DNA from: Limnochordia bacterium
GTDB taxonomy: Bacteria > Bacillota > Limnochordia > DTU080
Direction of reading: 5' to 3'
DNA: 64,000 nt
NCBI GenBank assembly: GCA_050951545.1
Contig: JBMNJG010000004.1
Location: 125,406-189,405, forward strand
The translations under genes and the position numbers were made by a program. Below the pieces are notes generated by a model. The model was given only the letters and a program-made list of their open reading frames with translations. It was not told the DNA's origin and searched no databases. Below, one piece after another: positions 12,167 through 62,121 of this stretch; the first letter of the stretch is position 1, and each line of letters begins with the position of its first letter.

Positions 12167-12306
12167 ATAGCCCACGCCTCCCTTTCTAAGGAATGGCTTG
12201 ATACCAGAATGGGGTTCTAGTCCAGATGTCGGGATCCTTCCACTCGGCGCAGGAGAAAGGCGTCTTTCCAGGAAATCTGTCGGTGTTTCTCGAGATGCGG
12301 TAGGAT

Positions 12307-16142: not shown

Positions 16143-17480
16143 ATGGCGCGTCAGATTCGCTGGTGTTTGGCAGTATGCTTGGTGCTCGCTTTGGTCTGGA
16201 TACCAGGGGCCTTGGCGAAGGAACAGGTGGTCTTAAAGTGGACCACATGCTGTGGGCAGGTGGATCGCCACGAGCTGTTTCAGTCGTGGGCACGGCGCTA
16301 TGAGTCCCGTAATCCAGGAATAAAAGTCGAGTGGGAGTACCCTTCTGGTAGCTATGGGGCCGTATTGTTAACGCGAATCGTTGGGGGTGCGGGCCCTGAT
16401 GTGATGTGGATCGGAGGTGCCTACTCAGAGCTGGCCGACCTATTCGCCTCAGTTGACGACATGCGCACGCGCACTGGTGGGCCACTGCGCGATGTCATGC
16501 CTTCGGTGTTTCCCCTGTTCTCGTGGGGAGGGAAGCTAGGTGCTGCACCCTACGGGGCCAACACAGTGCCGTTCTTCATCAACCAGCGCCTCTTCGCTGA
16601 GGCAGGTCTCCAGGTACCGTCACCCAGCTGGACCTGGGATGATTTCCTGGTCTTGATCAAGCGTCTTACGGCGGATCTCGATGGCGATGGCGAGCCCGAC
16701 AGATGGGGCTTTGATATTCGTTCCGGTGGGTACCAAGGTACTGCGGTGTCGTGGGGGGGAGCACCGTTCACCCCGGACGGACGAAAGGTGGCCTTCAACA
16801 ACCCCATTACGGTTGGGGTTACGCAGATTATCGTGGATCTGGTGACCAACAAGCACGGGCCCTATCAGTTACCTGCAGGCCGGGGTGACTTCGCGGCCGT
16901 AGCTAGGTCAGGTGCGGCGGCCATTGTGGCGGGCGGTGTCTGGGGGGTTCCTGCTCTGCGTCAGTTGCCCGAGGATGAATGGGAGGGCATCATCTTCCCT
17001 GGTTATGAGTATCAGGGTGAGCGATATCACGGCACGTATCTCTCAGGAGAGGCGTGGGCCATCTCAAACACAACACCCTACCCAGCAGAGGCTCGGCGCT
17101 TTGTGGAGTTCTTGCTGGATAAGGAGCAGATGCGCGAGTTCGCTCGTCTGGGCGGCATCATCCCCACCCAGCAAGCGGTGGCTCGGGAGTTCTTCCACCC
17201 ATCGACCTCGAAGCCACAAAATATGGCGGCATTCTTGGATTGCCTCGAGGTGGGCAAGCCTCTCTGGAACACCCACCCCGCTGGTAATGAGGTGATTACC
17301 CGGTCAGGTACGGTCTGGTCAGACCTCTGGGCAGGTAGACTGCCTGCCATCACAGCTTACGAGCAGATGGAAGTGATTGGGAACGCCGTCTTGGCCGACT
17401 TTCTGGGCAAAGAAGCAGTAAGGTATTCTCTAGGCGGTCCGTCTCATTCTATAATGACAAGTATGGTTGACGCCTGCTGA
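16143..17480 (+). CDS. ABC transporter substrate-binding protein (family 1, sugar-type), copy 1 of array; divergent, C-terminus frameshifted relative to copies 2-4
   Basis: Signal peptide then KEQVVLKWTTCCGQ... Roughly 85-90% identity to copies 2-4 judged by eye. A 1-nt difference (tttctggg vs ttttggg) removes the canonical stop and extends the ORF 20 codons through the terminator hairpin. Confidence 0.7.
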   Translation: MARQIRWCLAVCLVLALVWIPGALAKEQVVLKWTTCCGQVDRHELFQSWARRYESRNPGIKVEWEYPSGSYGAVLLTRIVGGAGPDVMWIGGAYSELADLFASVDDMRTRTGGPLRDVMPSVFPLFSWGGKLGAAPYGANTVPFFINQRLFAEAGLQVPSPSWTWDDFLVLIKRLTADLDGDGEPDRWGFDIRSGGYQGTAVSWGGAPFTPDGRKVAFNNPITVGVTQIIVDLVTNKHGPYQLPAGRGDFAAVARSGAAAIVAGGVWGVPALRQLPEDEWEGIIFPGYEYQGERYHGTYLSGEAWAISNTTPYPAEARRFVEFLLDKEQMREFARLGGIIPTQQAVAREFFHPSTSKPQNMAAFLDCLEVGKPLWNTHPAGNEVITRSGTVWSDLWAGRLPAITAYEQMEVIGNAVLADFLGKEAVRYSLGGPSHSIMTSMVDAC

Positions 17481-17495
17481 TTAGCGGGCGTCAAC
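17466..17495 (+). terminator. Intrinsic-terminator-like hairpin after SBP copy 1 (gttgacgcctgc/gcgggcgtcaac, loop tgatta), followed by attatctcttt
   Basis: 12-bp stem with one G-U pair. Repeated identically at 18946..18975 and 20426..20455. Confidence 0.5.
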
Positions 17496-17623
17496 ATTAT
17501 CTCTTTGCATAGTTGCTAGACAATGGGGGTCGTAGGTAGAAGGAGATCAATAGAGTCGAAGGGAAACAGGGAGGTGAAATTGTCAGCTATCAAAGCTATC
17601 AGATCGAGGGGGGTTATCACAGA

Positions 17624-18901
17624 ATGACGCGTCCGATTCGCTGGTGTTTGGCACTGTACTTGGTGCTCGCTTTGGTTTGGATACCAGGGGCCTTGGCGAA
17701 GGAACAGGTGGTCTTGAAGTGGACCACATGCTGTGGGCAACTGGATCGTCACGAGCTGTTTCAGTCGTGGGCGCGCCGCTATGAATCTCGTAATCCGGGA
17801 GTTAAGGTGGAGTGGGAGTACCCTGCTGGGAGCTATGGGAACGTGTTGCTGACCCGGATCGTTGGCGGCGCGGGACCTGACGTCATGTGGATCGGGGGCG
17901 CCTACTCACAGTTAGCTGACCTATTCGCCTCTGTGGAAGACATGCGAACGCGCGCTGGGGGGCCGCTGCGTGAGGTCATGCCCCAGGTATTCCCTCTTTT
18001 CACTTGGGGAGGGAAGCTGGGTGCGGCACCTTACGGGGCGAACACGGTGCCGTTCTTTGTCAACCAACGCCTTTTCGCTGAAGCAGGTCTGAGAATACCT
18101 CCACCCAACTGGACCTGGGATGATTTCCTCGTCTTGGTCAAGCGTCTTACTGTGGATCTCGATGGCGATGGCCAGCCCGATCGATGGGGTTTTGACATCC
18201 GCTCCGGAGGATACCAGTTGACCGCGCTCTCCTGGGGAGGAGCACCCTTCTCGCCTGACGGGCGCAAGGTGGCCTTCAATAACCCCATCACGGTTGGGGC
18301 TACACAAACTCTCGCAGATCTAGCAAACAACAGACACGGCCCCTATCAGTTGCCAGCAGGCCGAGGTGACTTCGCGGCAGTGGCGAGGTCTGGCGTGGTG
18401 GCTGTCGTAGCGGGCGGTGTCTGGGGGGTTCCTGCTCTGCGTCAGTTGCCCGAGGATGAATGGGAGGGCATCGTCTTTCCTGCCTATGAATATCAGGGTG
18501 AGCGCTATCACGGCTCCTATCTGTCAGGTGAGGCGTGGGCGATCTCTAACACAACACCATACCCAGAAGAAGCACGGCGGTTCGTAGAGTTCCTGCTGGA
18601 GAAGGAGCAGATGCGTGAGTTCGCCCGTCTGGGCGGCATCATTCCGACCCAGCAGTCGGTGGCCCGGGAGTTCTTCCACCCATCGACCTCGAAGCCACAA
18701 AACATGGCGGCATTCTTGGATTGCCTCGAGGTGGGCAAGCCTCTATACAATATCCACCCCGCTGGAAATGACATCATCTCCCGGTCTGGTCCGGTCTGGT
18801 CAGAGCTGTGGGCAGGCAGAATGCCCGCCTCTGCGGCACTAGAACAGATGGAGGTGATCGGAAACGCCGTCTTGGCCGACTTTTGGGCAAAGAAGCAGTA
18901 A
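17624..18901 (+). CDS. ABC transporter substrate-binding protein (family 1), array copy 2
   Basis: Translation identical to copy 3. GGGGGG RBS. Secretory signal ALA|KEQ without a lipobox Cys. Confidence 0.75.
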   Translation: MTRPIRWCLALYLVLALVWIPGALAKEQVVLKWTTCCGQLDRHELFQSWARRYESRNPGVKVEWEYPAGSYGNVLLTRIVGGAGPDVMWIGGAYSQLADLFASVEDMRTRAGGPLREVMPQVFPLFTWGGKLGAAPYGANTVPFFVNQRLFAEAGLRIPPPNWTWDDFLVLVKRLTVDLDGDGQPDRWGFDIRSGGYQLTALSWGGAPFSPDGRKVAFNNPITVGATQTLADLANNRHGPYQLPAGRGDFAAVARSGVVAVVAGGVWGVPALRQLPEDEWEGIVFPAYEYQGERYHGSYLSGEAWAISNTTPYPEEARRFVEFLLEKEQMREFARLGGIIPTQQSVAREFFHPSTSKPQNMAAFLDCLEVGKPLYNIHPAGNDIISRSGPVWSELWAGRMPASAALEQMEVIGNAVLADFWAKKQ

Positions 18902-18945
18902 GGTATTCTCTAGGCGGTCCGTCTCATTCTATAATGACAAGTATG

Positions 18946-18975
18946 GTTGACGCCTGCTGATTAGCGGGCGTCAAC
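18946..18975 (+). terminator. Same hairpin, copy after SBP 2
   Basis: Identical sequence, part of the 1480-bp repeat. Confidence 0.5.
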
Positions 18976-19103
18976 ATTATCTCTTTGCATAGTTGCTAGA
19001 CAATGGGGGTCGTAGGTAGAAGGAGATCAATAGAGTCGAAGGGAAACAGGGAGGTGAAATTGTCAGCTATCAAAGCTATCAGATCGAGGGGGGTTATCAC
19101 AGA

Positions 19104-20381
19104 ATGACGCGTCCGATTCGCTGGTGTTTGGCACTGTACTTGGTGCTCGCTTTGGTTTGGATACCAGGGGCCTTGGCGAAGGAACAGGTGGTCTTGAAGT
19201 GGACCACATGCTGTGGGCAACTGGATCGTCACGAGCTGTTTCAGTCGTGGGCGCGCCGCTATGAATCTCGTAATCCGGGAGTTAAGGTGGAGTGGGAGTA
19301 CCCTGCTGGGAGCTATGGGAACGTGTTGCTGACCCGGATCGTTGGCGGCGCGGGACCTGACGTCATGTGGATCGGGGGCGCCTACTCACAGTTAGCTGAC
19401 CTATTCGCCTCTGTGGAAGACATGCGAACGCGCGCTGGGGGGCCGCTGCGTGAGGTCATGCCCCAGGTATTCCCTCTTTTCACTTGGGGAGGGAAGCTGG
19501 GTGCGGCACCTTACGGGGCGAACACGGTGCCGTTCTTTGTCAACCAACGCCTTTTCGCTGAAGCAGGTCTGAGAATACCTCCACCCAACTGGACCTGGGA
19601 TGATTTCCTCGTCTTGGTCAAGCGTCTTACTGTGGATCTCGATGGCGATGGCCAGCCCGATCGATGGGGTTTTGACATCCGCTCCGGAGGATACCAGTTG
19701 ACCGCGCTCTCCTGGGGAGGAGCACCCTTCTCGCCTGACGGGCGCAAGGTGGCCTTCAATAACCCCATCACGGTTGGGGCTACACAAACTCTCGCAGATC
19801 TAGCAAACAACAGACACGGCCCCTATCAGTTGCCAGCAGGCCGAGGTGACTTCGCGGCAGTGGCGAGGTCTGGCGTGGTGGCTGTCGTAGCGGGCGGTGT
19901 CTGGGGGGTTCCTGCTCTGCGTCAGTTGCCCGAGGATGAATGGGAGGGCATCGTCTTTCCTGCCTATGAATATCAGGGTGAGCGCTATCACGGCTCCTAT
20001 CTGTCAGGTGAGGCGTGGGCGATCTCTAACACAACACCATACCCAGAAGAAGCACGGCGGTTCGTAGAGTTCCTGCTGGAGAAGGAGCAGATGCGTGAGT
20101 TCGCCCGTCTGGGCGGCATCATTCCGACCCAGCAGTCGGTGGCCCGGGAGTTCTTCCACCCATCGACCTCGAAGCCACAAAACATGGCGGCATTCTTGGA
20201 TTGCCTCGAGGTGGGCAAGCCTCTATACAATATCCACCCCGCTGGAAATGACATCATCTCCCGGTCTGGTCCGGTCTGGTCAGAGCTGTGGGCAGGCAGA
20301 ATGCCCGCCTCTGCGGCACTAGAACAGATGGAGGTGATCGGAAACGCCGTCTTGGCCGACTTTTGGGCAAAGAAGCAGTAA
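19104..20381 (+). CDS. ABC transporter substrate-binding protein (family 1), array copy 3
   Basis: Identical to copy 2 at the sampled nucleotides and in the full translation. Confidence 0.75.
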   Translation: MTRPIRWCLALYLVLALVWIPGALAKEQVVLKWTTCCGQLDRHELFQSWARRYESRNPGVKVEWEYPAGSYGNVLLTRIVGGAGPDVMWIGGAYSQLADLFASVEDMRTRAGGPLREVMPQVFPLFTWGGKLGAAPYGANTVPFFVNQRLFAEAGLRIPPPNWTWDDFLVLVKRLTVDLDGDGQPDRWGFDIRSGGYQLTALSWGGAPFSPDGRKVAFNNPITVGATQTLADLANNRHGPYQLPAGRGDFAAVARSGVVAVVAGGVWGVPALRQLPEDEWEGIVFPAYEYQGERYHGSYLSGEAWAISNTTPYPEEARRFVEFLLEKEQMREFARLGGIIPTQQSVAREFFHPSTSKPQNMAAFLDCLEVGKPLYNIHPAGNDIISRSGPVWSELWAGRMPASAALEQMEVIGNAVLADFWAKKQ

Positions 20382-20425
20382 GGTATTCTCTAGGCGGTCC
20401 GTCTCATTCTATAATGACAAGTATG

Positions 20426-20455
20426 GTTGACGCCTGCTGATTAGCGGGCGTCAAC
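20426..20455 (+). terminator. Same hairpin, copy after SBP 3
   Basis: Identical sequence, part of the 1480-bp repeat. Confidence 0.5.
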
Positions 20456-20583
20456 ATTATCTCTTTGCATAGTTGCTAGACAATGGGGGTCGTAGGTAGA
20501 AGGAGATCAATAGAGTCGAAGGGAAACAGGGAGGTGAAATTGTCAGCTATCAAAGCTATCAGATCGAGGGGGGTTATCACAGA

Positions 20584-21861
20584 ATGACGCGTCCGATTCG
20601 CTGGTGTTTGGCACTGTACTTGGTGCTCGCTTTGGTTTGGATACCAGGGGCCTTGGCGAAGGAACAGGTGGTCTTGAAGTGGACCACATGCTGTGGGCAA
20701 CTGGATCGTCACGAGCTGTTTCAGTCGTGGGCGCGCCGCTATGAATCTCGTAATCCGGGAGTTAAGGTGGAGTGGGAGTACCCTGCTGGGAGCTATGGGA
20801 ACGTGTTGCTGACCCGGATCGTTGGCGGCGCGGGACCTGACGTCATGTGGATCGGGGGCGCCTACTCACAGTTAGCTGACCTATTCGCCTCTGTGGAAGA
20901 CATGCGAACGCGCGCTGGGGGGCCGCTGCGTGAGGTCATGCCCCAGGTATTCCCTCTTTTCACTTGGGGAGGGAAGCTGGGTGCGGCACCTTACGGGGCG
21001 AACACGGTGCCGTTCTTTGTCAACCAACGCCTTTTCGCTGAAGCAGGTCTGAGAATACCTCCACCCAACTGGACCTGGGATGATTTCCTCGTCTTGGTCA
21101 AGCGTCTTACTGTGGATCTCGATGGCGATGGCCAGCCCGATCGATGGGGTTTTGACATCCGCTCCGGAGGATACCAGTTGACCGCGCTCTCCTGGGGAGG
21201 AGCACCCTTCTCGCCTGACGGGCGCAAGGTGGCCTTCAATAACCCCATCACGGTTGGGGCTACACAAACTCTCGCAGATCTAGCAAACAACAGACACGGC
21301 CCCTATCAGTTGCCAGCAGGCCGAGGTGACTTCGCGGCAGTGGCGAGGTCTGGCGTGGTGGCTGTCGTAGCGGGCGGTGTCTGGGGGGTTCCTGCTCTGC
21401 GTCAGTTGCCCGAGGATGAATGGGAGGGCATCGTCTTTCCTGCCTATGAATATCAGGGTGAGCGCTATCACGGCTCCTATCTGTCAGGTGAGGCGTGGGC
21501 GATCTCTAACACAACACCATACCCAGAAGAAGCACGGCGGTTCGTAGAGTTCCTGCTGGAGAAGGAGCAGATGCGTGAGTTCGCCCGTCTGGGCGGCATC
21601 ATTCCGACCCAGCAGTCGGTGGCCCGGGAGTTCTTCCACCCATCGACCTCGAAGCCACAAAACATGGCGGCATTCTTGGATTGCCTCGAGGTGGGCAAGC
21701 CTCTATACAATATCCACCCCGCTGGAAATGACATCATCTCCCGGTCTGGTCCGGTCTGGTCAGAGCTGTGGGCAGGCAGAATGCCCGCCTCTGCGGCACT
21801 AGAACAGATGGAGGTGATCGGAAACGCCGTCTTGGCCGACTTTTGGGCGCAGAAAAAGTAG
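20584..21861 (+). CDS. ABC transporter substrate-binding protein (family 1), array copy 4
   Basis: Identical to copies 2 and 3 except the last 4 residues (WAQKK vs WAKKQ). Repeat identity ends at 21848. Confidence 0.75.
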   Translation: MTRPIRWCLALYLVLALVWIPGALAKEQVVLKWTTCCGQLDRHELFQSWARRYESRNPGVKVEWEYPAGSYGNVLLTRIVGGAGPDVMWIGGAYSQLADLFASVEDMRTRAGGPLREVMPQVFPLFTWGGKLGAAPYGANTVPFFVNQRLFAEAGLRIPPPNWTWDDFLVLVKRLTVDLDGDGQPDRWGFDIRSGGYQLTALSWGGAPFSPDGRKVAFNNPITVGATQTLADLANNRHGPYQLPAGRGDFAAVARSGVVAVVAGGVWGVPALRQLPEDEWEGIVFPAYEYQGERYHGSYLSGEAWAISNTTPYPEEARRFVEFLLEKEQMREFARLGGIIPTQQSVAREFFHPSTSKPQNMAAFLDCLEVGKPLYNIHPAGNDIISRSGPVWSELWAGRMPASAALEQMEVIGNAVLADFWAQKK

Positions 21862-30084: not shown

Positions 30085-33000
30085 CTAGCACTTCGTGTAG
30101 CCGCAAGCCTTGCAGACGAAGCAGCCCTCTTCGCGAGCAAGGGCGGCGATACCGCAGGTGGGGCACAGATCCATACCGGAGCCAAAATCAATCGTGACTT
30201 GGATGCCCTGACTGCGTTGACTGTCCTCTATATGCACCTTTAGTGTCTTGGCCAAGGCATCAGGCACCGACGAGATGCGATTGATACCAAAGCCAACTGA
30301 CGTAGAACCTCCGATGTCAGAGAGGTGTTTCACCAGCATCTGGACTTTCTCATCTGCGGTCTTCATCCCGGCGTGTTTCAGGAATAGGGTAGCCAGCCTT
30401 CCGAGTGCTTCAGACATCGCGGAGATGTCACTTCCTGCCTTGCCGATGTTGAGGAAGACTTCGATGGGATCGCCTTGATACTCGTTTACCGTAATGAACG
30501 CTTTGCCCAACGGCGTCAGCCACTCATATGTCGCACCAGACAATTTGTGAGGCCTACCGGGCCACCGACGCTCTCTTTCTGGCGCAGGTACATCGGCTGG
30601 AGGTGCTTGAGCAGGGGCCTCTTTGTGCGCTTCGTCGGGTGTTTCTTCCTTCTTGGTCAGCACCTGCTCATTGCGTGAACCGTCTCGATAGATGGTGACA
30701 CCTTTGCAGCCCAGTTCATAGGCGTACTCGTAGAGTTCCTTCGTTTGCTCGAGGCTATAGTGATTGGGCGCGTTGGCGGTCTTGCTGATGGAGGAGTCGG
30801 TCCACGCTTGTATGGCTGCCTGCACCTGAATATGCTCTTTCGGAGCCAGTTCCATGGCCGAGACAAAGTAGTCGGGTAGATTGTCGAGCTGGCTTTCGAG
30901 CTCGGGATGCTGCCTGAAATACTCAGCTACGATGCGTTCTTGCACCTCATTGACACCAAGGCGTCCTTTGCGCCAGTAGGTCCATGAGTAATAGGGTTCG
31001 ATGCCAGTACTAGTTCCAATCATCGTTCCTGTAGAGCCAGTTGGCGCCTGGGTGAGTACACACACATTGCGCATCCCTTTTTCCTCGATATGTGCTCGCA
31101 CGTGTTCCGGCAGCTTCTTAACGAACCCGCCTTGTAGGTACTTCTCTTTGTCAAATTTGGGAAAGGCGCCCTTTTCCGCCGACAGATTGGCACTTGCCGA
31201 ATACGCTTCCGTGGCTATGAACCGGTAAAGCTCGTCAATGAACTCGAGGCTTTCGGGCGAACCGTAGCGTATTCCCATACGGATGAGCATCTCGCCCAAG
31301 CCCATGGTACCCATGCCCACCCGGCGTTGCCCTTTCTGAACATCCTCGTTTTGGGGAAAGAAATACGGGGTGATGTCAATGATGTTGTCAAGGAAGCGCA
31401 CACCCGCATGGATGGCGCGACGCAATGACTCCCAATCTACACTAGCCTCGCCAATGGGACCTGCGGCGAAACGACTCAGGTTGATGTGTCCGAGATTGCA
31501 GACTCCCCAAGGGGGCAGGGGCTGTTCGGCACAGTTATGCACAATCAGTCCGTTGGCGCAGAAAGCGCTGGCCTGCTCTACCGTCAGATCATAGACCATC
31601 TCTTGGCCATCCGGCACAAGCGCCTTGAAAGTGGCCACAAAGCGCTCATCGCCAGTTTGGGGTGCCAATGCCTGGAGTTCGCTCTGTTTGTCCGAATCCA
31701 AGAGACCGATCTGTTCTTGAAGGCGCCTAAGGCTAGGGCCACTGATCTGTAACTGTGAGGAGGCACGAAGACGACCCAAGATACCGAAGTTGAGCAGCAA
31801 CAGCTGCACAGCTTGCAGAAACTGCTCCGAATCGCTCGCCAACGCCACTGCATTGCTCTCATTGTCGACAAACGCGTGGGCTGTGAACAGAGACTGTAGG
31901 AAGCCCATCTGCATCTCTCGGGTGCCCTGAAGTACGTGATAGGGTAGGTGGGAGCAGCTGGTGTCAGCGCCCAGGCTGCGGCCTAGCTCCAACGAACCGC
32001 TTTTACCGAAGGCTCCTCCCCGATTGTGTATGAGGATGCCGTCGCCGGGTGTCAGGTCTTGCGCTTGTACCCAGCCGCGATTGTCAGTGAGAAGACGATG
32101 GTCAGCAGTGAGGCGTAGTTCGAAACCTTCCTCGGTAGTGAGGCGGAACACGGGTTTGAACCCCGAAGCAAAAACCTCCGAAGCTGGTGTGAATGGTGGA
32201 GAGCCCAGGCGCGAATCCGTGGCGACGTTGAGAGCAGAATTGCGCAGATACAGATCATCGGTGCGCCAAAGCCCTTGATCTGTGTAAAGGATACTATCGC
32301 CAGTGACACATGGGTTGGTGCTGATCAGATCCTCGAAGTACCAGCTATTGGAGTACTCGTTCATACGCTCGAGAAAGACCACACCAGGTTCGGCGCTCAT
32401 CCACGCAGACTCCATGATGGTGTTCCATATTTCGCGAGCTTTCAGCGTACGATGTGTCTTGACTGGTTTGCCAAGCTTGCGCCATCGCTGCATGCTGCCG
32501 TCCCACAGTTCATCATACTCGGGGTCCTGCGTATCTGGGAACTCGAGGTTCCAGTTGGCGTCCTCTCTTACGGCTTCCATGAAGGCGTGGCTGATGGCAA
32601 CGGAGATATTGGCGTTATTGATGGCTTGCATGTCGCGCTTGGCCTTGATGAACTCCAAGAGATCAGGGTGCCAGTCTTCCAGAATAAGCATGAGGGCGCC
32701 TCTGCGGCTTCCGCCTTGCTCAACCAGGCCCGTAGCAAAGCTAAATAACGCCCCCCAGCTCACAGAGCCGGAGCTGCGTCCGTTGACCCCTGCAACATAA
32801 GACAGGCGCGGCCGCAGGGCAGAAAGGTTTATACCGACACCACCGCCTCGAGACATGATCTCCACCATGTTGCCCAGAGTATCGATGATCGCCTGTCGAG
32901 AGTCGATGCCACCATCACCGTCGGGGCGGATGGGGATGACGTAGCAGTTATAGGCTGTGAGATTCTGTCCCGTACCTAACATCGCGTTTATGCGCCCACC

Positions 33001-33432
33001 TGGGCTAAAACGAAAATCACCTAAGAGCCAGCGGAACTCCTTTCTCAGTTCAGCCTGCTTTGTTGGTTCCTCCACGGTCACCACGCTGCGCGCCATGCGA
33101 TCCCACATGTCTTCCGGGAGAAGCTCAAGCGGCTTATCTACTTTTTTGCGATCCTGAACGAAAAGCTCGCCCGAGCTTTTGAGCTCTATGGACAGCATGT
33201 CACCATCTATTGAGCGGACAACGCCCACGTCCTTTTGCGGAAACCGGGGGTCCTCCTTCACCAGTACGACGACGGTGTCGCCCGGTGCGATTCTCTTGTT
33301 AGGATCCTTCATGGCGTAGCGATCAAGGAAAATGAGTTCGGAGATGCCATCGAGAGTCACGCGCTCCTCCTCTGCGTCTGACGTGACAGATGGTGTGGGG
33401 TGAGGTTGGGAGTTGGGTAGAGATGATGTCAA
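30085..33432 (-). CDS. nrdJ: Adenosylcobalamin-dependent ribonucleoside-diphosphate reductase (class II, NrdJ) containing one intein
   Basis: The class II active-site motif TNP|C...AEQPLPPWGVCNLG is split by an insertion. C-terminal Zn-ribbon CPTCG...CKACG is present. Mature extein is about 856 aa. Confidence 0.85.
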   Translation of the reverse strand: MTSSLPNSQPHPTPSVTSDAEEERVTLDGISELIFLDRYAMKDPNKRIAPGDTVVVLVKEDPRFPQKDVGVVRSIDGDMLSIELKSSGELFVQDRKKVDKPLELLPEDMWDRMARSVVTVEEPTKQAELRKEFRWLLGDFRFSPGGRINAMLGTGQNLTAYNCYVIPIRPDGDGGIDSRQAIIDTLGNMVEIMSRGGGVGINLSALRPRLSYVAGVNGRSSGSVSWGALFSFATGLVEQGGSRRGALMLILEDWHPDLLEFIKAKRDMQAINNANISVAISHAFMEAVREDANWNLEFPDTQDPEYDELWDGSMQRWRKLGKPVKTHRTLKAREIWNTIMESAWMSAEPGVVFLERMNEYSNSWYFEDLISTNPCVTGDSILYTDQGLWRTDDLYLRNSALNVATDSRLGSPPFTPASEVFASGFKPVFRLTTEEGFELRLTADHRLLTDNRGWVQAQDLTPGDGILIHNRGGAFGKSGSLELGRSLGADTSCSHLPYHVLQGTREMQMGFLQSLFTAHAFVDNESNAVALASDSEQFLQAVQLLLLNFGILGRLRASSQLQISGPSLRRLQEQIGLLDSDKQSELQALAPQTGDERFVATFKALVPDGQEMVYDLTVEQASAFCANGLIVHNCAEQPLPPWGVCNLGHINLSRFAAGPIGEASVDWESLRRAIHAGVRFLDNIIDITPYFFPQNEDVQKGQRRVGMGTMGLGEMLIRMGIRYGSPESLEFIDELYRFIATEAYSASANLSAEKGAFPKFDKEKYLQGGFVKKLPEHVRAHIEEKGMRNVCVLTQAPTGSTGTMIGTSTGIEPYYSWTYWRKGRLGVNEVQERIVAEYFRQHPELESQLDNLPDYFVSAMELAPKEHIQVQAAIQAWTDSSISKTANAPNHYSLEQTKELYEYAYELGCKGVTIYRDGSRNEQVLTKKEETPDEAHKEAPAQAPPADVPAPERERRWPGRPHKLSGATYEWLTPLGKAFITVNEYQGDPIEVFLNIGKAGSDISAMSEALGRLATLFLKHAGMKTADEKVQMLVKHLSDIGGSTSVGFGINRISSVPDALAKTLKVHIEDSQRSQGIQVTIDFGSGMDLCPTCGIAALAREEGCFVCKACGYTKC
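31534..32310 (-). other. Intein (259 aa) inserted in the NrdJ active-site loop
   Basis: Begins with Cys (CVTGDSILYT) immediately after the extein TNP. Ends with ...GLIVHN followed by the +1 extein Cys (CAEQPL). The internal FLQSLFTAHAFVD may be a degenerate LAGLIDADG remnant. Confidence 0.8.
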
Positions 33433-33965: not shown

Positions 33966-34635
33966 CTGCTAGCACAACATATGGTACCCAGATCAGTATA
34001 GACCCCTACATCTTGACCGTCAAAAGAGATTAGATCACGTTTGGATGTGTCTGACTCCCATTTTCGCGTGCGCAGGAGCTTTTGCTCGCTATCTTGGACA
34101 GACTACAGTAGTGGTCCAGAGGAGTACGCATGCCCGCACAGCATCACATGATCCTCTGGGGAGGTGAGTGTTCATGGGAAACATAGGCACATACGATGCT
34201 TTGTTACGTATAGGCACCGGCGCTTTGGCCTTGGCGTGGGCGAGTAGCCGATCCCGCTGGAGCGGGATTACGTCGCTTGTCGCAACTTGTGGCGCTGTGC
34301 TTGTCGGGGAAGGCATCACTCGTTTCAGCCCTCTCTATGCTGTCATGTCTCTGACAACTGTCGAGGATGAGGGAGAAAAGGTGATCTTGCGTGTGGGCCC
34401 GGTGACCTATCGCCGCCGCCCCCATAGTTCGAGAGCTGGATGCACGCTATGGGGCGTGACTCAAGACACGACCCTGCTGACGAATCACCTGAGCTCAGTT
34501 CGCTGTCGGCGAACAAGACGGACTGGCATTCACCGCGACGATGGGAGCCTACTTGACCTAGTGGCAGGGAAAGCGCGCCAGATGTGGAAGAACCAGAGCG
34601 TGCGCAAAGCAGCTCAGGGAGGGTCAGGTAATAGT

Positions 34636-36084
34636 ATGGCAAATATCGATCAGCTTCGTAATACATGGAATCAGCTTTACCAGGAGAATTTGTCCGAAGG
34701 GTTCGCCGCTGTGCGCGACTTGCCAGGTGTAGTGGTGGGTATTCACTCAGTCATCGACGGACTCAAGCGCCTCGATGTCGCTCAGCTCGAACAGGTTTTG
34801 GCGGACGATCCAGACTTGGCGGATGCTGCTCTGGAGGCGAGCGAAAAGGAGCTTGTGCCAGGCGAGATCAACACCCCGCGCGATTTTATCATTGGGTTGT
34901 TCACATCCTTTAGTCGGGGCAAGGCCCTGCAGCTTATGATTCGGCAAGAGTCAGCCTTTAATTGGGCACTGGAGAAACTCGGCTATGACTTTCTCCGTAT
35001 GGGTGGTACTTCGGGTAACATGGCCAACTCGTTGTCACCGCTGGGTTTTCCCATGGTGGTCTACGCCAATCCGCTCACACGTGAGTTGGCCGAGCTTTTC
35101 GTCGACAGGCCGAACTTGAAGGTGTTGGCCGCTGATGGCACCCCGAAGCCGCCAAAAGAAGCTGCTCAAGGCGAGGGTATCAAGGCGCTGCACCTGATCG
35201 TGGAGTATTCCACTGGCGACACTGTCACTGTGAAGGGCAAGAAGATCACCACGCCACGGGCCAATCGGTTCATTGCCGCCTGGAACCCTGTCAACAATAA
35301 GTTGCAGATTGATCCCACATGGAAGACGAATTTCCTAGCTATGGCAGATCAGGTCAGTCACTTTGTGGTCTCCGGTTTCCATATTCTCTCGGAGCGCTAT
35401 CCGGATGGTACCACGTATGCGGACTATCTGGCTCCTGTAGGCGAGTACCTGGCCGAGGTGCGCGCTCGCCACCCGCATCTGCGCCTGCACTATGAGTTTG
35501 CCAGCATCGCGAGCTCACATATCCGTCGCGGCATCCTCAAAGACATCTTGCCAAGAGTGCACAGTCTTGGACTCAATGAGGTAGAGCTGGCAGCTGTGCT
35601 AGACGACATCGGTGCAGTCGAAGAGGCTGCGGCCATGCGCAGGGAGGAAGGCATGGCGGCTATTCTCAAGGGTATGGATCGGTTGATGCGCCATACAGGT
35701 CTCGATCGCATTCAGCTGCATGATTTGGGCTACTACCTCACCTTGGTTCGTCCTGGCTATGCACCGCAGGAGAAGACGCGTACGGGCCTGATCTTGGCGG
35801 CGACTCTGGCAGCGAGCCGCACAGCAACGGGCAAGGTAGGTACTGAGGCTGAGATACGACAAGGCCTAGAGTTCCCGTTCATGGATGCCGCTCTTAAGAA
35901 GGCTGCGGAGATCAGCGAGTTTATCGGTGACGAGCAGTTGACGAAGACGGGTCTGGGCACGTGGAAGGACTGGCAGGTTGCCTATTTGCCGACCCGCGTG
36001 GTACCAAAGCCAGTGCTGACTGTAGGCCTGGGCGACCTAATCTCCGCATCGGCGTTCACAGTGGGCAGTCCTACCCACGCCTAG
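34636..36084 (+). CDS. ADP-dependent sugar kinase family protein (ADP-PFK/ADP-GK-like)
   Basis: GGTSGNMANSLSPLG and the C-terminal TVGLGDLISASAF motif, both characteristic of ADP-dependent PFK/GK. GGGAGGG RBS lies before ATG 34636. Continuous in frame with an upstream DUF2892-like segment (see findings). Confidence 0.65.
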   Translation: MANIDQLRNTWNQLYQENLSEGFAAVRDLPGVVVGIHSVIDGLKRLDVAQLEQVLADDPDLADAALEASEKELVPGEINTPRDFIIGLFTSFSRGKALQLMIRQESAFNWALEKLGYDFLRMGGTSGNMANSLSPLGFPMVVYANPLTRELAELFVDRPNLKVLAADGTPKPPKEAAQGEGIKALHLIVEYSTGDTVTVKGKKITTPRANRFIAAWNPVNNKLQIDPTWKTNFLAMADQVSHFVVSGFHILSERYPDGTTYADYLAPVGEYLAEVRARHPHLRLHYEFASIASSHIRRGILKDILPRVHSLGLNEVELAAVLDDIGAVEEAAAMRREEGMAAILKGMDRLMRHTGLDRIQLHDLGYYLTLVRPGYAPQEKTRTGLILAATLAASRTATGKVGTEAEIRQGLEFPFMDAALKKAAEISEFIGDEQLTKTGLGTWKDWQVAYLPTRVVPKPVLTVGLGDLISASAFTVGSPTHA

Positions 36085-37229: not shown

Positions 37230-37402
37230 AACTCTTATCTAGAGTGGCAGAGGGACTGGCCCGATGAAGCCCGGCAACCGGCAACCCGTGTGGTTGTGTC
37301 ATGGTGCTAATTCCTGCAGGATCACAGATCCTGGAAGATGAGAGGGAGTCTGCAGATGATTTTTCGTCAATATGCCTCTCCCTTTCTCAGGAGAGGTTTT
37401 TT
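37230..37402 (+). ncRNA. SAM-I (S-box) riboswitch with terminator expression platform
   Basis: CTCTTATCtAGAGtGGcaGAGGGACTGGCCCGATGAAGCCCGGCAACC...GGTGCTAATTCCTGCAG...GATGAGAGG matches the S-box consensus. The terminator CCTCTCC-loop-GGAGAGG+TTTTTT lies at 37374-37402. Confidence 0.85.
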
Positions 37403-57391: not shown

Positions 57392-58096
57392 CTACTTGTC
57401 TCGTCCGGAGCTCCATACACGACCACCGTCTGCGGGCTCGATGCACCGGGGGTGGTCGTTGGCAGGCGAGTTGGCCAGGGGTAGCACTTCATAGCCTTCC
57501 AGACCGGGTATCGGGCGAGGAGCCAGCAGGCCTTGCAGAGCTGTCGGGTCAAAATGGCAGTGGTCAAGCCATTGGTCTGTCTCTTTAGGGGAAAACAAAA
57601 TGGCTGGCATCCGATGATGAACGGCCCCTACGGTCGCGTTGGCCTTTGTCGTGACAATCGTGAATGTGCGCAGCGGCCCTTGTGGCGAAAGCCACTCTTC
57701 CCACAGACCAGCCAGGCCGAAAGGCTGACCCGCATCTAGCCTGAAATGAACGGGCACCTTTCTACCTGCATATGTATGCCATTCATAGAACCCGGTAGCA
57801 GGGATAACACACCGACGTTGTTGGAAGGCCTGTCGAAAAGCGGGTCTTTGCGCGAGAGTCTCGGCCCTAGCGTTGATCATTCTTTGGCCTATGGAGATCT
57901 CCTTGGCCCAATGCGGCACTAACCCCCAGCGCAATAGGGCTGCTTGTCGCCCGTGCAGGGGATCTTGGTAGATGCTTACTGCCAGCTGACTCGGTGCTAT
58001 GTTGTAGCGGGCGGCGAAGCCCACTGGCATCTGTGGCACGGCGAAGAGCCGGGCCAATAGCTCCGCGTTGCTGGCCAGAGAGAAACGGCCACACAT
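57392..58096 (-). CDS. SOS-response-associated peptidase (SRAP/YedK family) abasic-site processing protein
   Basis: Begins MCGRFSL (catalytic Cys2). Start reset to ATG 58096 with GGAGGG RBS. Confidence 0.75.
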   Translation of the reverse strand: MCGRFSLASNAELLARLFAVPQMPVGFAARYNIAPSQLAVSIYQDPLHGRQAALLRWGLVPHWAKEISIGQRMINARAETLAQRPAFRQAFQQRRCVIPATGFYEWHTYAGRKVPVHFRLDAGQPFGLAGLWEEWLSPQGPLRTFTIVTTKANATVGAVHHRMPAILFSPKETDQWLDHCHFDPTALQGLLAPRPIPGLEGYEVLPLANSPANDHPRCIEPADGGRVWSSGRDK

Positions 58097-58118: not shown

Positions 58119-59201
58119 TCAGTGATAGCCAAGCAGTGCTCTTTTCTCTCTGTGGTAGTACAGGTAGTTATCCAAAGGGACTCCGCATGGAACGCGGTGA
58201 TCAACGTGGGGAATGAAGCCGCCCTCTTCTACCACTGGTGCTAGGCGCTTGAGCTCATTCAGAATAGCGTCTCGATCTCGATAGAGCACCATCTTGTCAA
58301 AGCCACCTAGCAGAAGCAGCTCCTTGCCGTACTTACGGCGCAGCATGACAGGATCAGACCCTGCCCGCACCTCAATGGGGAACATGCAGTTGTAGCCAGC
58401 CTCAAGCCAGATATCGACCACCTCAGTGATGTTACCGTCGCAGTCCGTCCAGATGACGTCCACACCATGTTGGCGCAAGAGGCAAGAGATGCGTTTGTAG
58501 CGCGGCAGCAGAAACTCCCGTAGCATCGCCGGGCTAAACAGCGGCCCGTTGTTGAAGCAGAAGTCTTCCCACCCAGCGGCGTAGTCAAACTCGATGCGTT
58601 CCAGAAACGGCGTGATCCCATGCATGATCAGTTGGCATTGGGTTTCCACCATATCATCTACCAGCTCGGGATCATCGTAGGCCAACAAAGCGATCTGCTC
58701 AAATCCCGTCCAATCGCGAGGTTTGCCCAGCAGAGAGCCAATGTTGATCCCTACAGGAACCTCACTTCGCCGACATCGCTCGGCTATCTCGTCCATATTG
58801 GCCACTTGTCGCTGTGGTGAACGAGGGTTGAGACGCTCCTTAAAGCAGCTCCAAGACGCCCGATCCTTGATTGGAAATTCCAGGTAGTGGGGGATGCTTG
58901 CTTCTCCGCTATCGTGTACTTCGCAAATCACCCCTTCGGCGTCTTGGTACACCCTGCGACCATCCTCGACGCGCAGGGTTCTCGCCTTGAATGACGGAAT
59001 CAGTCCCAGAGGGGGGCCGACGATGACCTTGCGGTCGAGGCCGAAGTAGGCATCCGCCGCCTTCTCATCTTTGACCTCAACCGGAAGTCCCTGAGCATGC
59101 CATTCCGGGTAGAGCTGGTCCCAGTAGCCAAACTCATAGTTGGGAATCCGATCTACCTTCTGGAAGTGGAAGACCCTTTGCCAACGCTCTCTTGGGTTCA
59201 A
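58119..59201 (-). CDS. Uroporphyrinogen-decarboxylase-fold methyltransferase (MtaA/CmuA-like, putative methylcobamide methyltransferase)
   Basis: URO-D-like composition. Last gene of the corrinoid-protein / RACo operon. Confidence 0.5.
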   Translation of the reverse strand: MNPRERWQRVFHFQKVDRIPNYEFGYWDQLYPEWHAQGLPVEVKDEKAADAYFGLDRKVIVGPPLGLIPSFKARTLRVEDGRRVYQDAEGVICEVHDSGEASIPHYLEFPIKDRASWSCFKERLNPRSPQRQVANMDEIAERCRRSEVPVGINIGSLLGKPRDWTGFEQIALLAYDDPELVDDMVETQCQLIMHGITPFLERIEFDYAAGWEDFCFNNGPLFSPAMLREFLLPRYKRISCLLRQHGVDVIWTDCDGNITEVVDIWLEAGYNCMFPIEVRAGSDPVMLRRKYGKELLLLGGFDKMVLYRDRDAILNELKRLAPVVEEGGFIPHVDHRVPCGVPLDNYLYYHREKRALLGYH

Positions 59202-59236
59202 GGCTCATGCACCTCACAAGGGGGTAATGCTGCCTA

Positions 59237-61054
59237 TCAGAAGAACATGGCTTCGACGAATCTCTCCTGAAATGCCAGTTCGCCGCCTAGATCCACATGC
59301 TCAGCTCGTTTGGCCAGCTCAACGCAAGCAGTGCGGGCAGTCCTAGAGGTAAGGGCCAACACAGCACCTGCTCCAGCGGCATTGCCCAGAGATCGAATGC
59401 GGGGCAGGGGCAGAGGTGGCAACAGCCCGATGCACAGGGCACTGTCTTTGCGGACATAAGTGCCGAAGGCACCAGCTAGCAGAACCTCATCGAGTTCGGT
59501 AGCCAGTATGCCGGCGCGCAGGCAGCAGATGTCGACCGCTGCTCGAATCGCGCCCTTGGCCAGCTGCACCTGACGAATGTCTGCTTGCGTGAAGTCGATC
59601 GTCTGTGGCCTCTCAGTGAGACGGAAAACAATCCCACCATCTGTCTCTACCAAGTGACCAGCGAGACCCGGTTTGCCTGCAGCGGCGACCTCTTCGGAGG
59701 ATCGCAGGCGTCCAGTCTCATCAATCACGTCGAGGCGTACCAGCTCAGCCACAAGATCAATGAGTCCGGAACCACAGATGCCTCTGGCTGAATCATTGTC
59801 ACCCAGCACATGTAACTGCACGCCATCAGGATTCAGGGCGACGCCGTCGATAGCTCCGGGTTCAGCGCGCATGCCGTTCAGGATCTGTACTCCTTCAAAG
59901 GCGGGCCCTGCGGCAGCTGAGCAGGCCCATATGCGCCCATTGGCAGAAAGAAGGATCTCACCGTTAGTACCTAGATCGATCAGGAGGCGCGGCTTGTTGT
60001 CTGATAGCAGTTGGCCAGCGACGGCGGCTGCTACAGCGTCGGCCCCCACAAACCCACCGACAAGTGGACCACTCCAAAGCAGCGTGTCCGGAAAGCCATC
60101 GATGCCAAGCGCGGCTGCGGTCGTGAAAACCTCAGATCTGTGCACAGGCAGATAGGGCGATTGGCCAAGTCGTCTGGGAGACAGCCCCAAAAGCAGATGG
60201 TGCATACAGGTGTTTCCTACAACGCTCATGGCCACGATGTCGCTGGGCGCCACCGTTTTTGAAGCTGCCAAGGCACTCGCCATTTCGCCCATGGTAGAGG
60301 TGATCTCACCATGCAGAAGCTGCAGGCCCTCGCGCGTAGAAGCCACATCGATACGCGACATGACATCAGCCCCGTGCGCCGCCTGTGGATTGGCACGAGG
60401 CAATGCCCCTACTACCTCCCTGCTTTGCAGGTCTACGAGATAGGCGACCAGCGTGGTGGTCCCTATGTCGAAAGCCACCCCGTAGTAGCAGAGGCGGTTT
60501 TGACCTACTGGGCGAACACAAAGCAACTGCTCGGCAAAACTGGCCACTTCCAGCTCTTGAACGTCGCCAGCGAGAGCCTCAGGCATCATGCGCAGCAGGC
60601 CAATGTGAGGCGACTCAGCCTGAATGGTACCATTGCTAGCCGATACGAGACGTTCCCAGTCAGAGAGAGACTCCGGTAACGCTGGCGGCAACTGGATCCG
60701 TTGGAGCTGAAGGTTGCTATCGCCGACATGCAGATCGCCGTAGCCATCTACTAGGATGGCGGAGTCTGAAGCTTTTGGTAATGAGTGAACCAAAACCTCG
60801 CCTCCCGATGAACGGGCCTGGCAGATAAGGCGAATGCCTGTGGCGAGATCCGCAGCAGAGAGATGCTGGAGTTCGGTAGCGTTGGGAGCCTGCAAGGCTC
60901 CGGTTACGAGCGCTCGGCATTTTCCGCATGAGCCACGACCATTGCAGGGGAGTGTGATACTCTCCCCTGCGGCCATAAGGCTATCGGCAAGAAGAGCGCC
61001 TTGTTTCATCTGTAGGCGGAGAATCCCCTCAGCAGTGTTTCTAGCGAATGACAT
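59237..61054 (-). CDS. Corrinoid reductive activation protein (RACo-like; N-terminal [2Fe-2S] ferredoxin + ASKHA ATPase domain)
   Basis: CNGRGSCGKCRALV plant-type ferredoxin Cys cluster, followed by an ASKHA/DUF4445-like ATPase domain. Confidence 0.65.
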   Translation of the reverse strand: MSFARNTAEGILRLQMKQGALLADSLMAAGESITLPCNGRGSCGKCRALVTGALQAPNATELQHLSAADLATGIRLICQARSSGGEVLVHSLPKASDSAILVDGYGDLHVGDSNLQLQRIQLPPALPESLSDWERLVSASNGTIQAESPHIGLLRMMPEALAGDVQELEVASFAEQLLCVRPVGQNRLCYYGVAFDIGTTTLVAYLVDLQSREVVGALPRANPQAAHGADVMSRIDVASTREGLQLLHGEITSTMGEMASALAASKTVAPSDIVAMSVVGNTCMHHLLLGLSPRRLGQSPYLPVHRSEVFTTAAALGIDGFPDTLLWSGPLVGGFVGADAVAAAVAGQLLSDNKPRLLIDLGTNGEILLSANGRIWACSAAAGPAFEGVQILNGMRAEPGAIDGVALNPDGVQLHVLGDNDSARGICGSGLIDLVAELVRLDVIDETGRLRSSEEVAAAGKPGLAGHLVETDGGIVFRLTERPQTIDFTQADIRQVQLAKGAIRAAVDICCLRAGILATELDEVLLAGAFGTYVRKDSALCIGLLPPLPLPRIRSLGNAAGAGAVLALTSRTARTACVELAKRAEHVDLGGELAFQERFVEAMFF

Positions 61055-61074
61055 GAGTCACAGGGAACCCCATT

Positions 61075-61707
61075 TCAGGCAACGAGTGATTTGGCCACAT
61101 CTACAGCGGAACCAGCGTCAGGCGCATAGGCATCGGCGCCAATTTCCTGAGCGAAGGCATCGGTGATCGGAGCGCCACCAATAATCACCTTCACCTGGTC
61201 GCGTAGACCTTTCTCGACAAGAAACTTGATTGTCTGTGCCATAGCGGGCATGGTAGTGGTAAGTAGGGCTGACATGCCTAGAATATGGGGCTGGTGCTCG
61301 CGAACCGCCTCCACGAACCTCTCTGGTGAGACATCGATGCCCAGGTCCACAACGTCAAATCCGGCTCCCTCTAGCATCATAGCCACGAGTTTCTTGCCGA
61401 TATCATGCAAGTCGCCTTTTACCGTGCCTATGATTACCTTGCCAATGGGCTGCAGGTCAGACTCAGAGACTAAGGGTTTCACGATGGCGAGCCCGGCATT
61501 CATGGCCCTAGCTGCGATGAGCACTTCGGGCACATAGATCTCATTATTCTTGAACCTGTCAGCGACGACCTCCATACCAGCTATCAGGCCTTGGTTGATA
61601 AGCTCTGCAGGCTTGGTGCCACTGGCGATAGCTTCGTTTATCAGTCGTTCGGTCTCTGGGGCTCTTCCATTGATGACCGCCTGCGCAATCTGCTGGAACT
61701 GACTCAA
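61075..61707 (-). CDS. Corrinoid (cobalamin-binding) protein, MtaC/MtbC-like
   Basis: B12-binding-2 cap plus GDLHDIGKKLV (DxHxxG) and a Rossmann-like B12-binding domain. TTG start with GGGAGGG RBS. Confidence 0.75.
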   Translation of the reverse strand: MSQFQQIAQAVINGRAPETERLINEAIASGTKPAELINQGLIAGMEVVADRFKNNEIYVPEVLIAARAMNAGLAIVKPLVSESDLQPIGKVIIGTVKGDLHDIGKKLVAMMLEGAGFDVVDLGIDVSPERFVEAVREHQPHILGMSALLTTTMPAMAQTIKFLVEKGLRDQVKVIIGGAPITDAFAQEIGADAYAPDAGSAVDVAKSLVA

Positions 61708-62121
61708 AAGTGACTCCCTCCCTATTCGGATAGTGGGGCTCTACTTAAGCAGTGGTAGTGCAGATTTCGCCCACGTGCTAATCTTCTCCTTGTTTTTTCG
61801 CGGTTCGGTTGGGTACCCTTTACTGGATCATCAACGGCAAGCCAGTCTTTATTTCGCGTATTCCCGACCAGGAGGCCTTTCGTCAGAGATCCTGGAGGGG
61901 ACGTGTCCAAGATGAACTGCGACTCCTAGGCCCTTTCGCTTCGCGACGCGTATAATAACACTGGAATATGCTTTTCGCGCTTTCTGTGTACTGTCGAATG
62001 GGAGGAGTGGCGCATGCCAGCGTGTGGATGGAGTTCGTTTCCTCCGGAAACAGCCAGCGACACTGCGGGAGCGGTGCAGCCTGCGAGTGATCAAGTGCGA
62101 CAAATAGCAGGGGCAGGGAGG

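Follow-up and report, generated by a model that had tools for sequence, protein, structure and literature searches.

The window analysed in this study is a stretch of 64,000 nucleotides from a Limnochordia bacterium (assembly GCA_050951545.1, contig JBMNJG010000004.1, positions 125,406 to 189,405). It is a segment of a Bacillota chromosome with a G+C content of 55-59%, and it encodes SpoIIE, TilS, FtsH and a SleB-like hydrolase. The first-pass annotation had assigned the segment to a spore-former, and the SpoIIE and SleB-like genes bear this out. The subject of this report is an operon of three genes in the window, which encode a corrinoid protein (CP), a reductive activase of the RACo type and a protein with the fold of uroporphyrinogen decarboxylase (URO-D). 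The limits that the first-pass annotation gave for a three-gene module, 58119 and 61707, match three minus-strand open reading frames (ORFs) exactly. The genes are as follows.

61075..61707, minus strand: CP gene, 210 aa, TTG start, with GGGAGGGAG upstream
59237..61054, minus strand: gene of the RACo/RamA-type ATP-dependent reductive activase, 605 aa
58119..59201, minus strand: gene of the URO-D-superfamily TIM-barrel protein, 360 aa; proposed corrinoid methyltransferase

The CP and RACo genes are separated by 20 nt and the RACo and URO-D genes by 35 nt, and a plausible ribosome-binding site (RBS) lies upstream of each of the three. In the relative designated L009, which is 81-84% identical, the first and third genes begin with the same TTG start. 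Both the RBS and the TTG start of the CP gene are kept there (84% identity), and the start of the URO-D gene is also backed by the N-terminal consensus of its family, MxxRERW. The gap in front of the URO-D gene is 26 nt in L009 (81% identical) against 35 nt in the window. The annotated sequences nearest to the module come from Limnochordia metagenome-assembled genomes (MAGs) and from biogas-reactor metagenome contigs.

The CP contains a B12-binding_2 domain (PF02607; 81.2 bits, residues 4-77) and a B12-binding domain (PF02310; 105.7 bits, residues 89-198), and it matched the Moorella corrinoid protein of PDB entry 1Y80 with 243 bits. Its base-off/His-on signature is complete (D99-L-H101-D-I-G104, S146-A-L148 and G177-G178) and aligns identically with that of 1Y80. 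That is, the His ligand of the DxHxxG motif, which had been read at first pass, is confirmed on alignment as H101. The score of the CP against TIGR02370 was 214.0 bits, 1.3 bits under the cutoff of 215.3. Its best NCBIfam match was of the MtgC type, and the MtgC, MtbC and MtaC equivalogs all stayed far under their cutoffs. Because every substrate-specific equivalog is far below its cutoff, no substrate can be assigned from the CP. Judged by its sequence, the CP is a generic member of the MtaC-type family and is silent on the substrate.

The activase showed the Raco_middle domain (PF17651, 164 bits) and the RACo_C_ter domain (PF14574, an ASKHA ATPase, 235 bits), and over residues 18-604 it is collinear with RACo of PDB entry 3ZYY (230.6 bits). 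Its N-terminal ferredoxin-like domain carries Cys37, Cys43, Cys46 and Cys78. The match to Fer2 is weak (18.2 bits, E 0.0024, under the gathering score of 21), and the Fer2 domain of NqrF matched weakly at residues 14-81 and 18-81. The protein is thus the full-length RACo-type activator that had been annotated, with [2Fe-2S], middle and ASKHA domains. These domains stand in the same order as in RACo of Carboxydothermus hydrogenoformans (3ZYY) and AcsV. Unlike those proteins, however, the window activase has no CODH/ACS or CoFeSP context, and identification as the AcsV equivalog itself was rejected (333 bits against a cutoff of 800). Its client is likely to be a monomeric corrinoid protein of the MtaC type. 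The CP and the activase are conventional components.

The third gene product is not conventional in the same sense. It barely reached the Pfam URO-D family, with 29.5 bits. A search against all PDB sequences gave nothing significant, either with the single sequence (E 0.17) or with a 56-sequence family profile (E 0.036). The protein is less than 20% identical to the solved structures of the UroD superfamily and 12-17% identical to those of HemE, and the HemE sequences in PDB aligned with its C-terminal 60 residues only (E 0.04-0.2). It was placed by fold comparison alone, which confirmed the (beta/alpha)8 fold and with it the URO-D fold named in the first-pass annotation. The predicted fold is slightly nearer to HemE than to MtaA.

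That annotation had gone further and called the protein an enzyme of the MtaA/CmuA kind, i.e., an acceptor-side methyltransferase (MT II). This we could not uphold. Against mtaA_cmuA (TIGR01463) the protein scored 19.8 bits, and the cutoff is 235.4; the best E-value to this family in the whole clade of its relatives was 2.8e-11. When 56 clade members were scanned against NCBIfam, mtaA_cmuA was matched by 50, methylcobalamin:CoM methyltransferase by 42 and hemE by 8, all far under the cutoffs. The protein is not a genuine HemE either, in agreement with the first-pass annotation. The window protein gave no match to TIGR01464 (HemE) at E<=0.01, and the best match in the clade was 1.3e-5. Window ORFs were called by length (at least 90 aa), which gave 50, and 48 of them were scanned against Pfam. 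No tetrapyrrole-synthesis family was found among these ORFs, and the neighbours of the URO-D gene are the CP, RACo and SRAP genes.

The putative metal site also separates the protein from the MtaA/CmuA family. At the positions of the His-Cys-Cys zinc triad, as aligned to URO-D paralogues with an H-x-C motif and not to MtaA itself, the clade has Thr or Val at 252, Cys at 254 (77 of 86 sequences) and His at 335. That is, the first His of the triad is replaced. Invariant Asp residues (Asp253, Asp255 and Asp334) flank these positions. The residues kept in 86/86 clade sequences are E212, D213, D253, D255, D334, H335 and R336, and all of them map to the C-terminal ends of predicted beta-strands or directly behind these ends, where the active site of a TIM barrel is usually found. 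The URO-D paralogues that occur in the same loci carry the H-x-C motif. It has been described that His-Cys-Cys marks the S-methyltransferases of the UroD superfamily, and that the O-(de)methylases have carboxylates or non-ligands instead (Kountz & Balskus, PMC10418091); CdmB works without zinc. As far as its sequence can tell, the URO-D protein stands outside both the MtaA/CmuA and the HemE families, in a deep-branching clade of the UroD superfamily.

This clade is large. It gave 1404 matches in a database clustered at 90% identity; at 50% identity there were 889 clusters at E<=1e-30 and 4895 at E<=1e-10. It spans more than 10 phyla, mostly in carbohydrate-utilisation loci, and no member bears a functional name. 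We fetched 80 clade loci from species-representative genomes and added contexts from the protein database, which made 86 non-redundant loci; genes in the fetched loci were called with a GC3-aware caller before counting.

An orthologous CP was encoded within 5 kb of the clade gene in 14 of the 86 loci, and in 6 of the 44 loci whose flanking sequence reached 5 kb or more on each side. Outside the lineage of the window, these CPs are 47-60% identical to the window CP. In eight loci the CP gene lies within about 210 nt of the clade gene (including L102, which was fetched after the 86-locus survey). A RACo gene was nearby in 8/86 loci, a DUF1638 gene in 6/86 and a homocysteine S-methyltransferase (SMT, PF02574) gene in 4/86. 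The commonest neighbours within 5 kb were URO-D paralogues (14 loci) and GFO/IDH/MocA oxidoreductases (10 loci), followed by CP, RACo, DUF1638 and SMT. The CP-linked loci come from Latescibacterota, Poribacteria, Armatimonadota, Planctomycetota, Lentisphaerota, Chloroflexota and Bacillota. On a neighbour-joining tree the CP-linked members occupy at least nine places and are interleaved with unlinked members. The gene orders in individual loci are as follows.

L018: CP-RACo-DUF1638-UROD-nitroreductase-UROD2-SMT
L092: CP-RACo-DUF1638-UROD2-URODx-UROD-SMT
L094: UROD-CP-(URO-D/thioredoxin fusion)-SMT
L065: CP-DUF1638-RACo-UROD
L102: UROD-CP-Pterin_bind
L078: MTHFR-Pterin_bind-amidohydrolase-CP-UROD-RACo
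L024 and L021: UROD-CP-GalK-like

The fusion gene of L094, a locus in a Fimbriimonadaceae MAG, occupies 12013-13386 between the CP and SMT genes; it encodes a URO-D domain that scores as a canonical one (224 bits) and a thioredoxin-like C-terminal domain. Another clade representative of unusual length is P0286 (548 aa), which has a C-terminal extension of about 175 residues. We considered a fused B12 domain in this protein and rejected it, as the extra 175 residues neither match a Pfam family nor resemble the CP.

Since adjacency to a CP gene recurs with differing gene orders and at scattered positions of the tree, it is difficult to account for this linkage without assuming that the clade and a corrinoid protein function together. 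Some of the accompanying genes are known from corrinoid systems. Genetic data show that a split cobalamin-dependent methionine synthase needs DUF1638 and RamA-like proteins (Price et al. 2018, PMC5764234), and such proteins are induced together with a betaine demethylase that depends on a corrinoid (PMC12478193).

We then considered on which side of the corrinoid protein the URO-D protein would act. The UroD superfamily holds both MT II enzymes (MtaA, MtbA and MtsA) and donor-side methyltransferases (MT I), namely OdmB, VdmB, MtvB, MtoB, CdmB, CmuA and MecE. Thus, because so many of its members are MT I enzymes, the fold does not imply MT II. In the characterised bacterial systems (cdmBCA, and those of MtvB, OdmB, VdmB and MtoB), a UroD-superfamily MT I is combined with a CP and an MT II, which is a pterin-binding protein where it has been described. 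The layouts of L102 and L078 mirror these MT I/CP/MT II triads, and for this reason the MT I role is favoured. The clusters with an SMT gene lead to the same assignment in another way. L018, L092 and L094, and likewise L044, where an SMT gene lies beside the clade gene, have this homocysteine module, which is the acceptor part in MetH, and have no pterin module, so that one of the URO-D proteins has to be the donor enzyme. A donor role is the one assignment that can account for both kinds of cluster as well as for the carboxylate-rich site, and by analogy these observations favour it.

In the window itself, no gene of the MttB, MtaB, pterin-binding or homocysteine methyltransferase type was found among the ORFs. 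Searches of the window by tblastn with pterin-binding, PF02574, DUF1638 and PF02965-like queries gave no match, and about 6 kb past the window end is likewise without Pterin_bind, PF02574, PF02965-like and DUF1638 genes. The first-pass annotation had concluded that MT II was present and a substrate-specific MT I was missing. The absence of a classical MT I (MttB/MtaB) from the window is correct. Given the triads and the SMT loci, however, the missing part is more likely the acceptor-side methyltransferase.

Taken together, we lean, if only by a little, towards regarding the operon as a corrinoid-dependent methyl-transfer module with the URO-D protein as its donor-side enzyme. The MT I role of the URO-D protein as such seems to us somewhat more probable than not. 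The order of the genes, their domains and motifs, the fold and the repeated linkage of the clade with corrinoid genes are shown above; the direction of transfer, the nature of the substrate and the identity of the acceptor are inferred, as follows. The CP would carry a cobamide in the base-off/His-on state and cycle between Co(I) and CH3-Co(III). The RACo-type protein would pass an electron through its [2Fe-2S] cluster and use ATP to bring accidentally oxidised Co(II) back to Co(I). The URO-D protein would take up the methylated substrate at the opening of its TIM barrel and present it to the Co(I) of the CP. Because the site is rich in carboxylates, this substrate would probably be an O-methyl compound. 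The methyl group would then go to tetrahydrofolate (THF) or homocysteine by way of an acceptor-side enzyme encoded outside the window.

Compared with known systems, the module most resembles those of OdmB, VdmB, MtvB, MtoB and CdmB in its layout. In these systems, as in the window, the gene for a UroD-fold TIM barrel lies beside those for an MtaC-type His-on CP and a RACo/RACE-type activase, and relatives of the window protein in L102 and L078 form triads of URO-D-like protein, CP and Pterin_bind. The zinc triad is not required in such MT I enzymes, as CdmB is free of zinc. In contrast to these systems, the window has no pterin-binding MT II, and its URO-D protein reaches no family cutoff and is less than 20% identical to the solved structures. 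Furthermore, most of the clade belongs to phyla that degrade polysaccharides and lies in sugar loci, rather than in acetogens or methanogens. The MtaA/MtbA/MtsA and CmuA enzymes differ from the window protein in the family score and in the zinc site described above, where the His is replaced by Thr or Val and invariant Asp residues flank the positions; in addition, coenzyme M, which MtaA, MtbA and MtsA serve, is not used by the organisms considered here.

Two other systems share some features with the module. The Type 1 mlp clusters (Kountz & Balskus, PMC10418091) likewise combine one or more UroD methyltransferases with a CP and a Ram/RACE protein, without an H4folate methyltransferase, in non-methylotrophic anaerobes. 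However, they need both Mlp2 and Mlp3, two proteins that share about 30% identity with CoM methyltransferases and have sites of the His-Cys-Cys type, whereas the window has a single, far more divergent URO-D gene with a carboxylate-rich site and marginal SCMT similarity. The split cobalamin-dependent methionine synthase (PMC5764234; MtgC-linked, PMC12478193) has a RamA/RACo-like activase and a stand-alone protein made up of a B12 cap and a B12-binding domain. In L018, L092 and L094, relatives of the window module carry DUF1638 and the PF02574 SMT, and in Mahella the same CP clade sits with Pterin_bind and a PF02965-like protein. The window differs in that it lacks Pterin_bind, PF02574, PF02965-like and DUF1638 genes and has the URO-D protein in the third position.

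The relatives of the module in its own lineage show how this third position varies. In the closest Limnochordia MAG (L099), the CP and RACo genes stand at the syntenic site, with DeoR, PHP and Asp-Al_Ex genes upstream and SRAP, M20 and SleB genes downstream, and there is no URO-D gene. Two Limnochordia assemblies, one of which is L099, have the order CP (76-77% identical), RACo (62%) and a PF02965-like gene. In Mahella australiensis, whose CP (65% identical) belongs to the same CP clade, the order is PocR/AraC, Pterin_bind, CP, PF02965-like and RACo. Since the syntenic CP and RACo genes of L099 are followed by a PF02965-like (MetH-activation-like) gene, the third gene appears exchangeable. That is, CP-RACo is a stable core, and the URO-D gene fills the third place in the lineage of the window. 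An exchangeable third gene shows the modularity that is typical of corrinoid systems. The whole neighbourhood is syntenic within the lineage, so that conservation there proves little about a functional link.

The PF02965-related protein is about 230-250 aa long and matches the MetH activation domain weakly; its genes were found at L099 12520-13278, L101 12520-13278, L098 10704-11387 and L001 14394-15008. It follows CP-RACo in Limnochordia and lies between CP and RACo in Mahella. In L001 the homologue comes directly after a sulfatase gene, at a distance of 3.3 kb from the 'unlinked' URO-D-like gene. The Limnochordia MAG GCA_050951525.1 (L100 10001-10633) has a second, stand-alone CP paralogue, 77% identical to the window CP, in a carbohydrate locus with an AraC-type regulator, AP_endonuc_2 and GH42. 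About 10 kb further downstream (20312-20633) this MAG carries a set of LacI, two solute-binding protein (SBP) and URO-D genes, the URO-D protein being of a different subfamily.

Several observations weigh against a donor-side enzyme that works with the CP. About 84% of the clade loci have no CP nearby, one large subclade (Anaerolineae/Brocadiaceae) is entirely without CP linkage, and the nearest relatives beyond the own lineage (L001 and L012, 65-66% identity) are not CP-linked. The URO-D gene is also a lineage-specific addition, given the PF02965-like gene in its place in L099, and CP-RACo may primarily serve another enzyme. As for the direction of transfer, L078 and L102 can be read in reverse as well, with methyl-THF as the donor and the URO-D protein as the acceptor-side MT II, and in the SMT clusters the actual donor enzyme could be a second URO-D paralogue, which every one of them contains.

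The explanation that survives best beside the donor role is that of the first-pass annotation, in which the URO-D protein is the MT II. It would take the methyl group from CH3-Co(III)-CP and transfer it to an acceptor, for example a sugar, a hydroxyl compound or a thiol, and an MT I or a methyl-THF donor module would be encoded elsewhere. The clade matches to mtaA_cmuA and to methylcobalamin:CoM methyltransferase, weak as they are, are preferential, and Cys254 is mostly kept; against this, none of the scores comes near the family cutoffs, and Thr or Val stands in place of the triad His. The combination of MTHFR and a pterin-binding methyltransferase in L078 is also the arrangement expected of a methyl-THF-dependent methylation, as in MetH. 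L102 has a pterin-binding methyltransferase beside the CP, and the CP-RACo pairs of the same CP clade in Mahella and Limnochordia stand in MetH-like sets with Pterin_bind and PF02965-like genes. In the characterised bacterial triads of UroD protein, CP and pterin-binding protein, however, the UroD member is the MT I. Moreover, the four SMT clusters without a pterin module would then have two acceptors and would have to use the paralogue as the donor enzyme. We therefore consider the MT II role possible, though not probable.

It is also conceivable that the linkage is incidental. That is, CP and RACo would serve a split methionine synthase or another methyltransferase elsewhere in the genome, and the URO-D protein would be a cofactor-independent carbohydrate enzyme, e.g., a decarboxylase or some other TIM-barrel activity, whose gene was inserted beside them by chance. 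Most clade members indeed stand alone in carbohydrate loci, L099 keeps the syntenic CP-RACo without the URO-D gene, and the fold is slightly nearer to HemE than to MtaA. An incidental linkage does not agree with adjacency to orthologous CPs in at least seven phyla, with variable gene order and scattered tree positions, nor with the occurrence of RACo, DUF1638, SMT and Pterin_bind together in the same clusters. The tight spacing of the URO-D gene in both the window operon and L009 also speaks against it, and we regard this explanation as unlikely. That the gene is a divergent genuine HemE for heme or cobamide synthesis is hardly credible, because the window protein does not match TIGR01464 and the clade does so rarely and weakly, identity to HemE structures is very low, heme-synthesis neighbours are absent, the clade has several paralogues per genome in sugar loci and, to our knowledge, HemE is not used by the anaerobic cobamide pathway.

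If the URO-D protein is the donor-side enzyme, its substrate may be sought in the gene context of the clade. Stand-alone members lie beside genes of GH2, GH3, GH20, GH30, GH42, DUF2961 (which we take to be the GH172 family), sulfatases and a CE15-like esterase. Other neighbours are LacI, sugar ABC and MFS transporters, FGGY and GalK-like kinases, GFO/IDH/MocA and AP_endonuc_2. From this context and from the phyla, our guess is that the substrates are glycan-derived methyl groups, i.e., methyl ethers or esters of sugars. Literature searches gave nothing relevant on corrinoid- or cobalamin-dependent demethylation of methylated sugars, nor on UroD-family enzymes in polysaccharide utilisation. The sugar genes around the operon were not accepted as evidence on the substrate. 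GalE/K/T and DeoR genes lie just past the window end, and the same backbone flanks CP-RACo in the Limnochordia MAG without the URO-D gene. Only tentatively, and with more doubt than confidence, we propose that the clade would be an unrecognised family of cobamide-dependent demethylases, which in anoxic settings would act on methylated carbohydrates or on the methyl ethers or esters of glycans and would deliver the methyl group, via a shared CP, to tetrahydrofolate or methionine.

The remaining features next to the operon are the following.

61708..62121, no strand: intergenic leader / divergent promoter region, no known riboswitch
57392..58096, minus strand: SRAP/YedK-family gene (PF02586, 219 bits)

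The length of 410 bp given for the leader at first pass is right when it is measured to the ATG of the divergent small gene at 62122 (about 414 nt), but only 306 nt remain when the longest ORF start, 62014, is used. The label DUF2642-like for that gene could not be confirmed: no such Pfam match was obtained, and the sole match, to the SH3-like domain of RimP, was weak (E 0.008). In the leader (61708..62121) no Rfam family, riboswitch or other RNA, was found even at E<=1. A scan for promoters and terminators stayed at chance level there, with no sigma-70 consensus promoter and no terminator. Two blocks of the leader, 61949-61958 and about 61903-61928, are kept in L009 (81% identical). The first of them contains TATAAT on the plus strand at 61951-61956; this element is more likely to belong to the divergent small gene.

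The SRAP/YedK gene begins 22 nt past the stop codon of the URO-D gene and has its own RBS, GGAGGG. Because this distance is so short, the transcription unit may comprise four genes. The SRAP/YedK gene is probably co-transcribed with the operon, yet outside the methyl-transfer system. The corresponding spacing is 181 nt in L009, and in L099 the SRAP gene lies on the opposite strand.

Elsewhere in the window, 30085-33432 (minus strand) encodes a ribonucleotide reductase of 1115 aa that has a TSCPD domain and is split by an intein with a LAGLIDADG endonuclease domain. The TSCPD domain is typical of B12-dependent class II ribonucleotide reductases, and the enzyme is probably of this class. Because of this TSCPD-domain enzyme, use of cobamides by the organism is plausible. 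An S-adenosylmethionine (SAM) riboswitch (37232-37344, plus strand, 95.8 bits) lies upstream of genes for a Cys/Met pyridoxal-phosphate enzyme and an alpha/beta-hydrolase. These genes look like those of O-acetylhomoserine sulfhydrylase and homoserine O-acetyltransferase, i.e., of homocysteine synthesis; no methionine synthase gene was found in the window.

Several sugar-related genes were also observed. A 1480-bp unit with the gene of a 425-aa sugar-type SBP occurs in three tandem copies, 99.5-100% identical, at 17404-21861, and a fourth, diverged SBP gene lies upstream of them at 16143-17480. The tandem units are either a recent amplification or an assembly artefact. In a gap of the ORF list, 11126-12085 (minus strand) showed 31% identity (E 2e-41) to a CE15-like/Abhydrolase_7 protein that neighbours a CP in L085. 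The gene at 34168-36084 (plus strand) encodes a domain of the ADP-dependent phosphofructokinase/glucokinase family with an N-terminal YgaP-like transmembrane domain, which is unusual for a bacterial sugar kinase.

Corrinoid methyltransferase systems set which methylated compounds anaerobes can use, and each of the earlier MT I assignments opened a class of substrates: methoxylated aromatics, quaternary amines and chloromethane. The present clade is large, phylogenetically broad and uncharacterised, and it occurs in uncultured polysaccharide degraders, not in acetogens and methanogens. The window operon joins CP, activase and enzyme in a compact form, and its organism is a relative of Limnochordia from biogas reactors; this makes it convenient for reconstitution in vitro. 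If the clade does consist of glycan-methyl demethylases, these enzymes would correspond, in anaerobes, to the P450 sugar O-demethylases, and the operon would be one compact version that has its own CP and activase. If the URO-D protein acts on the donor side, it would provide a source of methyl groups in anoxic carbohydrate turnover that has so far not been accounted for, and it would allow methionine or C1-folate synthesis to bypass de novo formation of methyl-THF.

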